The notes beneath the pieces are model-generated. The model was given only the letters and a program-made list of their open reading frames with translations, was not told where the DNA came from and ran no database searches. Shown here in pieces: positions 366 to 643 of a DNA stretch of 26,856 nucleotides. Positions within the stretch are counted from its first letter, which is position 1, and every line of letters starts with the position of its first letter. The stretch spans positions 1 through 26,856 of the forward strand of contig JAHFOQ010000001.1 in NCBI GenBank assembly GCA_023261595.1. Direction: 5' to 3'. A program made the position numbers and the translations under genes. Source of the DNA: a bacterium (lineage in GTDB: Bacteria > Patescibacteriota > Saccharimonadia > CAILAD01 > BJGX01).

Positions 366-442
366 GCGCCCGTAGCTCAGTTGGATAGAGCGTCAGTTTG
401 CGGTACTGAAGGTCGTAGGTTCGACTCCTGCCGGGCGCACCA
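366..442 (+). tRNA. tRNA-Arg, anticodon GCG as read
   Basis: 77-nt cloverleaf. Acceptor GCGCCCG/CGGGCGC, D-arm GCTC-AGTTGGATA-GAGC, anticodon stem TCAGT/ACTGA with loop TTGCGGT (anticodon GCG, G37), T-arm GTAGG-TTCGACT-CCTGC, discriminator A, encoded CCA. Confidence 0.85.
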
Positions 443-607
443 AGGTTTGAGTCTCACTTTTGTGAGGCACAGACCTTGTTTGTTACTTGGGGTCGAAACC
501 TAAGGTTCGCCGACGATTGAGTGAGTGATAACCAAAAGTATACTTTTAGGTTATACGAACGATTGAGGAGGATTGTTGCGTAAGTAACTGTACTGCCGGG
601 CGCACCA
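427..607 (+). repeat. 15-bp direct repeat of the tRNA-Arg 3' end (CTGCCGGGCGCACCA), flanking a ~150-bp spacer
   Basis: Copy 1 at 428-442 lies inside the tRNA. Copy 2 at 593-607 is an exact 15-nt match. No tRNA cloverleaf is associated with copy 2. Confidence 0.8.
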
Positions 608-618
608 GAGTAATTATA

Positions 619-643
619 AAAGACCTACTGAGGTCTTTTTTTG
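619..643 (+). terminator. rho-independent terminator
   Basis: AAAGACCT-actg-AGGTCTTT hairpin followed by a T7 run. Confidence 0.75.

Follow-up and report, generated by a model that had tools for sequence, protein, structure and literature searches.

A family of structured, roughly 150-base cassettes downstream of tRNA-Arg and tRNA-Ser genes in Saccharibacteria

In this study, we found a family of structured cassettes of roughly 150 bases that sit behind tRNA-Arg and tRNA-Ser genes of Saccharibacteria and end in a copy of the preceding tRNA's 3' end. The family has apparently not been described before; our literature search returned no description of such cassettes, a result that holds for the literature covered. 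The analysis started from a 26,856-nt piece of a Saccharibacteria (CPR) chromosome, hereafter the window, which carries a unit of this kind directly downstream of a tRNA-Arg gene. We prefer to read the family, with a probability of about 55%, as non-autonomous insertion cassettes that are specific to tRNA gene 3' ends and contain a structured core, with positions 443-607 of the window as an old and diverged copy. The duplicated tRNA end is a footprint of a known kind, that of insertion into a tRNA end, and the mechanism that produced it is possibly new.

The tRNA-Arg locus of the window

The 15-nt direct repeat from which the original prediction started is real: CTGCCGGGCGCACCA occurs exactly twice in the window, both times on the + strand (428-442 and 593-607), while in shuffled sequences the average was 0.17 matches even with three mismatches allowed. 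The exact repeat begins with four nucleotides from the 3' side of the T stem, continues with the 7 nt of the acceptor's 3' strand and closes with the discriminator A and CCA. In addition, it extends imperfectly into the T loop (ACT..CTGCC; 424-442 versus 587-607), with C in the first copy standing as GTA in the second. The order of a tRNA-Arg, a non-coding segment of about 150 nt and a terminator was likewise borne out by ARAGORN, Rfam, an ORF check and a terminator scan. There is no ORF of at least 40 aa between the repeat copies and no conserved ORF in the 150-nt interval, and ARAGORN found no tmRNA or tRNA-like gene in 443-607. Compared with shuffles, the fold reached z = -3.2 for 443-607 and z = -5.7 for 366-645. 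The features of the locus are listed in Table 1.

The putative -10 box upstream of the tRNA gene lies within CAGGTATAAT, which is also found upstream of tRNA-Arg in L002 and L096; this box was not listed by a consensus promoter scan. The tRNA-Arg that decodes CGN usually has the anticodon ACG (the inosine form) in bacteria. In the window and in all Saccharibacteria loci examined, it has GCG.

Two terminator-like structures follow the tRNA. From its predicted fold, the hairpin at 443-476 together with TTGTTTGTTA looks like the tRNA-Arg's own weak terminator, and the empty sites of relatives have an analogous terminator directly after CCA. Since this putative terminator lies between the two repeat copies, their co-transcription would need read-through. 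Terminator 2 is the stronger one, and a direct-repeat comparison showed that the T-rich tail after hairpin 1 is similar to the tail after terminator 2.

Table 1. Features of the tRNA-Arg locus, with positions in the window
Feature	Position	Strand	Basis
Putative -10 box TATAAT of the tRNA-Arg promoter	349-354	+	read from sequence
tRNA-Arg, anticodon GCG, CCA encoded	366-442	+	ARAGORN; Rfam tRNA, 67.9 bits
Repeat copy 1, from T-loop nt 58 to CCA of the functional tRNA	424-442 (exact part 428-442)	+	
Hairpin 1 (34 nt, 443-476) with TTGTTTGTTA, directly after the first CCA	443-485	+	fold; inverted repeat
Hairpin P1, GGGGTCGAA / CC-TAA-GG / TTCG, a helix of the family	489-509	+	inverted repeat
Conserved cassette core	492-592	+	full-length match of 492-607 to covariance model R1 (model positions 1-114 of 114)
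Long arm formed by helix P2 (514-519 paired with 560-565), with variable hairpin P3 (525-556) inside it	514-565	+	MFE fold
Hairpin P4, GUUGC-GUAA-GUAAC, GNRA loop	575-588	+	MFE fold
Repeat copy 2, "orphan" tRNA 3' end	587-607 (exact part 593-607)	+	
Terminator 2: stem 618-639, T run to 646, then TTTTTTGTTA	611-646	+	terminator scan; inverted repeat

The neighbouring genes encode a membrane protein without known function, a HAD-like hydrolase and an 865-aa protein similar to the major vault protein (MVP). Farther genes in the window include those for lipid-modifying enzymes, methionine sulfoxide reductases and type IV pili; no recombinase, transposase or reverse transcriptase domain was found in the larger ORFs of the 26.8-kb window. 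The vault-like protein (1413-4010, + strand) has MVP shoulder and repeat domains and an SPFH/Band 7 signal (Pfam 2e-27). Its closest relatives are in Candidatus Saccharibacteria MAGs, homologues with 38-74% identity occur in MAGs of Saccharibacteria, Myxococcota, Chloroflexota, Bacteroidota and others, and the exact protein is on two metagenome contigs only. In the window, the HAD-like hydrolase gene (641-1231) stands between the cassette and the vault-like gene; L002 (5860-6000) lacks it, and there the unit abuts the promoter region of the vault gene. It is intriguing to see a vault-like protein gene beside a tRNA-linked structured element; a link between the two was rejected because other Saccharibacteria MVP loci have no unit nearby.

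Between the vault-like gene and tRNA-Ser(CGA), the window contains about 430 nt of GC-rich non-coding DNA (4118-4548, + strand) with a terminator-like hairpin at its end. This stretch has an MFE of -177 kcal/mol (z = -5.7 versus shuffles), gave no Rfam match even at permissive E, and is missing at the corresponding place of L002. It contains a run, GGTAACGGCTCACCAAG, that we take to resemble a 16S rRNA helix. On the strength of its predicted fold, it is a candidate for an unknown structured RNA.

Distribution, gain and loss of the cassettes

The comparison set consisted of 32 metagenome loci and several further contigs, collected with the membrane-protein sequence, together with the loci of genomes that have vault homologues. 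In this set, the membrane-protein gene and the tRNA-Arg(GCG) behind it form a conserved pair. Among about 29 orthologous loci, the tRNA-Arg site is occupied in six, truncated in one and empty in about 22, and the empty sites have the terminator hairpin directly after the tRNA and no second end copy. This comparison, which the original prediction had suggested, thus revealed an insertion polymorphism, and the duplicated end is not a fixed part of the tRNA trailer in relatives. The closest relatives (L050, L051, L096 and L097) were left out of the tRNA-Arg site comparison on account of contig ends. The contigs of L050, L051, L096, L097, L120 and L121 stop inside or just beside the tRNA-Arg gene, which would be expected if the tRNA sequence is conserved or repeated or if the trailer is polymorphic.

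An exact copy of the tRNA-Arg end, 15-19 nt long, lies 147-151 nt downstream in the window (offset 150), L055, L073 and L077/L078. The tRNA-Arg unit of L002 has a decayed copy (ATCCCTTCtGGT...), and L072 retains a truncated remnant. Furthermore, a systematic scan of every tRNA in every locus found units behind tRNA-Ser(TGA), (CGA) or (GCT) in L050, L058, L062-L069, L073, L074, L080, L098 and L119. Each of these ends in a 13-20 nt copy of its own tRNA's end, at an offset of 103-191 nt. The terminal copy always matches the local tRNA, including the T-stem variant CCCAC or CCCTC. In total, the duplicated-end pattern recurs in more than 20 independent loci. Meanwhile, 6-kb regions of L054 and L076 carry all four tRNAs and are free of units.

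When the intervals were aligned, the same order of elements appeared: a hairpin, ...GTCGAAACC-N-AGGTTCG..., GCGCAG, a variable hairpin, CGAGCAC, GAAGGCG-N-AGCCGC and the tRNA-end copy. At least three subtypes can be distinguished. Subtype A includes the units of the window, L002, L055, L058, L050, L067, L069, L073, L077 and L098, subtype B those of L062-L064, L068, L073, L074 and L080, and subtype C is the tandem form in L078. Subtype C is located behind tRNA-Ser(TGA), at 2524-2790 in L078 and at 1-104 in L077; in L078 it comprises at least two tandem 132-nt units, each with a terminator hairpin and two copies of tRNA sequence, the inverted T arm (GGGATTCGAA) and 20 nt of the tRNA end. In addition, tandem arrays in the order tRNA-B-A are found in L062, L065 and L068.

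Two further loci deserve mention as observations in their own right. Behind tRNA-Ser(CGA) of L002, positions 14543-14612 contain a hairpin followed by AGGTGTGTG...CACACCTGGGTTCG at the end of the fetched DNA; judging by its sequence, this looks like the start of another unit (the long P1 form) that is cut by the locus boundary. Downstream of tRNA-Arg(GCG) in L052 (860-1240), there is a promoter-like sequence with three tRNA-like calls (Arg-TCG, a 94-nt "Lys-CTT" and Glu-CTC) that have odd anticodon positions and no encoded CCA, an arrangement that differs from all other loci.

The left edge of the end copy always falls at nt 57-59 of the T loop, and most copies stop at CCA on the right. Exceptions are L073, L077 and the L078 tandem, where the copy extends across the terminator (over about 70 nt in L073 and about 65 nt in L077), and the similar T-rich tails suggest that the window probably carries a faded version of such a repeat. 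Besides the direct copy, the T loop and T stem of the local tRNA recur in inverted orientation about 45-55 nt after CCA, for instance GGAGTCGAA in L077, GGATTCGAACC in the B unit of L062, GGGATTCGAA in L078 and GGGGTCGAA in the window, where 489-497 is complementary to 420-428. GTCGAA occurs at this position only beside tRNAs with the T loop TTCGACT; at tRNA-Ser(TGA) of L067, the hexamer is elsewhere in the interval. The inverted T-arm copy forms hairpin P1 with the direct GGTTCG.

The most precise case of gain or loss concerns tRNA-Ser(CGA). L062 is near-identical there to L063, L064 and L067 and differs by a B unit of 156 nt whose limits coincide precisely with the 18-nt repeat ATCCCTCCCTCTCCGCCA. 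This unit adjoins the tRNA, ahead of the resident A unit, an order like that in arrays of successive integrations (bioRxiv 10.1101/2020.12.28.424599). A copy differing by one base is located behind tRNA-Ser(TGA) on the same contig. The difference could also have come from gene conversion between two tRNA-Ser genes with 30 identical 3' bases, with no active transposition.

Truncated or decayed units were found in L002, L072, L069 (B unit), L080, L068 and L119. In L002 the core is intact (88 bits) and the 3' half of the copy has decayed, and point mutations are present in several orphan copies, including supposed pairing partners (L098 and the B unit of L069). Because the copy can decay or mutate while the core stays intact, it behaves as a footprint and not as an indispensable part of an RNA. 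The cores also differ in their history from the tRNAs. With P3 and the end copy excluded, the tRNA-Arg cores of L055 and L002 are 80-81% identical to the tRNA-Ser core of L058 and only 67-71% identical to the tRNA-Arg cores of L073 and L077; the tRNA-Ser(GCT) core of L069 is closest to the tRNA-Arg core of L073. Core similarity tracks the host lineage and not the tRNA type, and thus the core has switched its tRNA site more than once. After each switch, the terminal copy is that of the new neighbour tRNA.

The structured core and the origin of the cassettes

A covariance model, R1, was built from ten A units with the window left out. Searched over 288 kb, it gave 26 matches, every one of them immediately behind a tRNA; B units are recognised weakly. 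The window, the most diverged member of the family, is a weak match at 18.7 bits (E = 0.026 over 288 kb and 4.6e-5 locally). Its core begins 47-50 nt after CCA, behind the hairpin at 443-476. Despite the sequence drift, the MFE fold retains the three-way layout of the family, with P1 folding at 494-509, and P4 stands in place of the GGC-GUA-GCC of other members. The window core also contains an exact 9-nt direct repeat, ACGATTGAG, at 513-521 and 559-567 (spaced 46 nt), which corresponds to the GAGCA...GAGCA motifs that flank P2 in other units. This repeat doubles as helix P2 because CGAUUG is self-complementary with G-U pairs.

RNAalifold predicted P1, P2 and P4 and, in addition, a closing helix of GGUG with nt 72-75 of the copied end. 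In the model alignment of 22 distinct sequences, 93% of the cells are paired and both sides change in nine of 18 pairs; none of 500 shuffles reached any of the five measures, and slid partners were 27-48% paired. In helix P2, compensatory changes are seen in all seven pairs. P1 and P3 vary in length and keep the hairpin, with frequent CUUG, GAGA or GUAA loops. These tetraloops and the long versions of P1 are more stable on the + strand, and P4 of the window is stable only there. Judged by the MFE of the whole unit, the + strand has no advantage; the G-rich complement of the tRNA end often makes the minus strand the more stable one, and the counts of G-U versus A-C in P1, P2 and P4 are too few to indicate a strand. 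Taken as a prediction from these folds, the core is likely made as + strand RNA by read-through from the tRNA promoter. An Rfam 15 search at the gathering score and at permissive E up to 10, covering 300-720 of the window and six related loci, gave the tRNA alone at the gathering score and no plausible further family at permissive E.

Several known RNAs or genes were considered for the interval and rejected. Strings like CUUGAUGAG and CGAAAC, compared by eye, misfit the hammerhead core, and there is no Rfam match to this or another small ribozyme. The stretch between CCA and GGTTCG has no significant similarity to a tRNA body, which speaks against a pseudo-tRNA. A small ORF or toxin is contradicted by the lack of a conserved ORF and by hairpin lengths that vary out of frame. 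SRP RNA, 6S RNA, RNase P RNA and tmRNA were ruled out by size, motifs and the absence of an Rfam or ARAGORN match.

The comparisons establish that the units form a family with a conserved structure, that they are gained or lost, arranged in tandem and subject to decay, and that the core has moved between tRNA types; how insertion works, whether the core is transcribed and what element or host might gain are what we infer from these observations. A cassette is a non-coding unit of 130-190 bp at the 3' end of a tRNA gene in Saccharibacteria. Its first part is a hairpin or terminator directly after the tRNA CCA. The second is the core of about 100 nt, in which hairpin P1 is followed by the covarying P2, capped by the variable P3, and by the small P4. 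The third is a copy of the last 15-20 nt of the preceding tRNA, from T-loop nt 57-59 to CCA. The duplicated end would then be an insertion footprint of the attL/attR kind that leaves the tRNA intact, the core RNA would be read through on the + strand from the tRNA promoter, and recombination between the two end copies could remove the cassette. Since the cassette encodes nothing, its insertion would depend on an enzyme supplied elsewhere or on host recombination. Candidates are a recombinase acting in trans on the T loop, copying between tRNA genes with shared ends that is assisted by their homology, and an RNA-mediated route. The attL/attR reading of the original prediction therefore survives in part: the geometry from T loop to CCA, the polymorphic site and the precise tRNA-Ser indel agree with it, and the integrase and the gene cargo are absent.

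Some points count against insertion cassettes. Neither the window nor the surroundings of any copy yielded an integrase, transposase or reverse transcriptase, and no autonomous parent element was found. An element of about 150 bp is very small for excision and re-integration of the integrase type. The always-local copy, despite the switching of cores between Arg and Ser, is not readily explained by an attP borne by the element, and a repeat that runs through the terminator over about 65-70 nt (L073, L077 and probably the window) is unlike a fixed crossover segment. The window copy itself scores just 18.7 bits. Furthermore, the strong RNA-like conservation of the fold would also fit a host RNA gene.

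Such a gene is the main rival explanation. It would be a host small-RNA gene in the tRNA trailer, co-transcribed with the tRNA, whose tRNA-like 3' end belongs to the molecule, for instance for 3'-end maturation or for closure between GGUG and nt 72-75. The original prediction had allowed for a co-transcribed small RNA that reuses the acceptor end, and in one respect it is supported, as the core resembles a structured + strand RNA. The covariation, the stable tetraloops and the survival of the three-way architecture in the drifted window copy agree with this explanation, as does the RNAalifold helix between GGUG and C72-R73-C74-C75, in which U faces A in the Arg units and G in the Ser units. 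In addition, each unit is followed by a terminator and leaves no space for a promoter of its own. However, the distribution is patchy with many empty sites, including the four-tRNA regions of L054 and L076, truncated and decayed copies exist, and units lie behind strong terminators in L073 and L077. Against a reuse of the 3' end, L002 keeps its core beside a half-decayed copy, and the supposed pairing partners are mutated in L098 and the B unit of L069. Thus, a host RNA gene accounts for the covariation but not for the patchiness, the decay and the dispensability of the copy, and we regard it as a serious option that is nevertheless well short of even odds.

More tentatively, and with slightly less confidence than we give the host gene, one may think of a new kind of mobile element, in which an RNA/DNA module of about 100 nt targets the T loop of tRNAs and rebuilds its flanks from the target by an RNA-templated or RNA-guided step. 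Such rebuilding would give both copies seen in the units, the direct one of nt 58/59-76, which in some cases includes the terminator, and the inverted one of the T arm. The RNA step might be reverse transcription of the tRNA 3' end that stops at m1A58, or it might use guide-like segments derived from the target; a conventional element-borne attP would not be involved.

The classical stop in reverse transcription of a tRNA 3' end is m1A58, which yields 18 nt. In an RNA-mediated origin, reverse transcription of the tRNA 3' end would run as far as m1A58, and template switching would then link the resulting orphan copy to the core. The idea is an attractive one for flanks templated by the local tRNA, and it would account for the constant left edge (nt 57-59), for right edges at CCA or the terminator end, where the mature and the primary transcript stop, respectively, and for a copy that is re-made from the local tRNA at each change of site. 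Nevertheless, we consider it improbable. No reverse transcriptase was seen at any locus, m1A58 is only presumed in these bacteria, the steps of the pathway are hypothetical, and integrase crossovers in the T loop would give the same left edge.

The view that the segment is the scar of a decayed or excised island or prophage, with attL and attR left close together after deletion of the genes and the 150 nt as leftover DNA, had been part of the original prediction and did not hold up; we judge it very improbable. Partial tRNA copies do mark old integrations in other bacteria (bioRxiv 10.1101/2020.12.28.424599), and a repeat from T loop to 3' end is the usual extent of attachment sites in tRNA genes. 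Their general principle is described in PMC9897764. However, independent deletions would not leave a core of about 100 nt with equal length and equal fold behind four tRNA genes in many lineages, and the compensatory changes show selection on structure. No ORF fragments or integrase remnant are present, and there is no similarity to phage records or viral contigs: blastn of the first 4.8 kb of the window and two units against 50,697 phage records gave tRNA matches or nothing, and pattern scans of IMG/VR gave chance matches in coding DNA or nothing, none confirmed by R1 or beside a tRNA. Finally, the repeat might be due to chance or to a plain tandem duplication of local origin and mean nothing more. 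Only the small size speaks for this view, and it is already refuted by an expectation far below 1 and by recurrence in more than 20 independent loci, so that it is hardly credible.

If insertion cassettes are the right reading, tRNA-targeted mobile DNA would have a new, minimal representative in this family; otherwise it may be a new tRNA-linked small RNA. In CPR bacteria, genomes are tiny, recognised mobile elements are few and little non-coding DNA is kept without reason. The cassettes could give a handle on recombination or RNA-processing activities in uncultivated Saccharibacteria. In addition, an orphan 3' end and a polymorphic trailer may add to assembly breaks and can mislead the annotation of tRNAs and islands. 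Model R1 can be used in surveys of complete genomes, which makes the question of mechanism directly testable.

Comparison with known systems

A T-loop/3'-end class of tRNA integration sites was reportedly distinguished by Williams in 2002. Like prophages and islands in tRNA genes (PMC9897764), the cassettes have a repeat that is the 3' part of a tRNA and are flanked by the intact tRNA and an orphan fragment of it, and as in integrase-borne islands, presence and absence differ exactly at the repeat. The tandem units also recall tycheposon arrays (bioRxiv 10.1101/2020.12.28.424599), with the strain-specific, presumably newest, unit of L062 next to the tRNA. In contrast to integrase-borne islands, the cassettes measure about 150 bp, contain no integrase or other gene and no foreign genes on the kilobase scale, and have a conserved structured core as their "cargo". 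Moreover, one core is combined with different tRNAs, and the repeat is always local and sometimes runs through the terminator.

CIMEs of Streptococcus and MITEs are non-autonomous derivatives of integrative elements and transposons, respectively. The cassettes resemble them (for a survey of MITEs, see PMC11602168) in being small, non-coding, patchy, decayed and dependent on functions in trans, with multiple related copies per genome. Unlike MITEs, they have internal hairpins only and no terminal inverted repeats at the cassette ends, they duplicate 15-21 nt of a tRNA end where MITEs duplicate a short generic target site (2-10 bp), and there is no known parent element. The likeness to the PATE of IS200/IS605 and to the omega-RNA of TnpB is a resemblance only, in the subterminal hairpins and a 3' flank-like 18-mer. 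Here a target duplication is present, Rfam gave no match to IS605-orfB or HEARO, and the window contains no transposase.

The 3'ETS-leuZ of E. coli is an sRNA carried in the 3' trailer of a tRNA. The cassettes share with sRNAs of this type a non-coding RNA between the tRNA and the operon terminator that derives from the tRNA transcript, which here is predicted. However, such sRNAs have no tRNA-end copy, no insertion polymorphism and no comparable multi-helix fold. Within the same phylum, group I introns were recently catalogued in tRNA genes of Patescibacteria (PMC13011429). These are also selfish or neutral structured RNAs at tRNA genes, mostly without a homing endonuclease, but they are located in the anticodon loop, are at least 200 nt long, match Rfam Intron_gpI and interrupt the tRNA, whereas a cassette follows an intact tRNA and has no Rfam match.

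The primer-binding segment of retroviruses and LTR elements corresponds to 18 nt of a tRNA 3' end, up to m1A58. The cassettes copy the same tRNA stretch (nt 59-76, 18 nt), and this is a resemblance only, as their copy stands in sense orientation in a bacterial chromosome, with no reverse transcriptase known to be involved.
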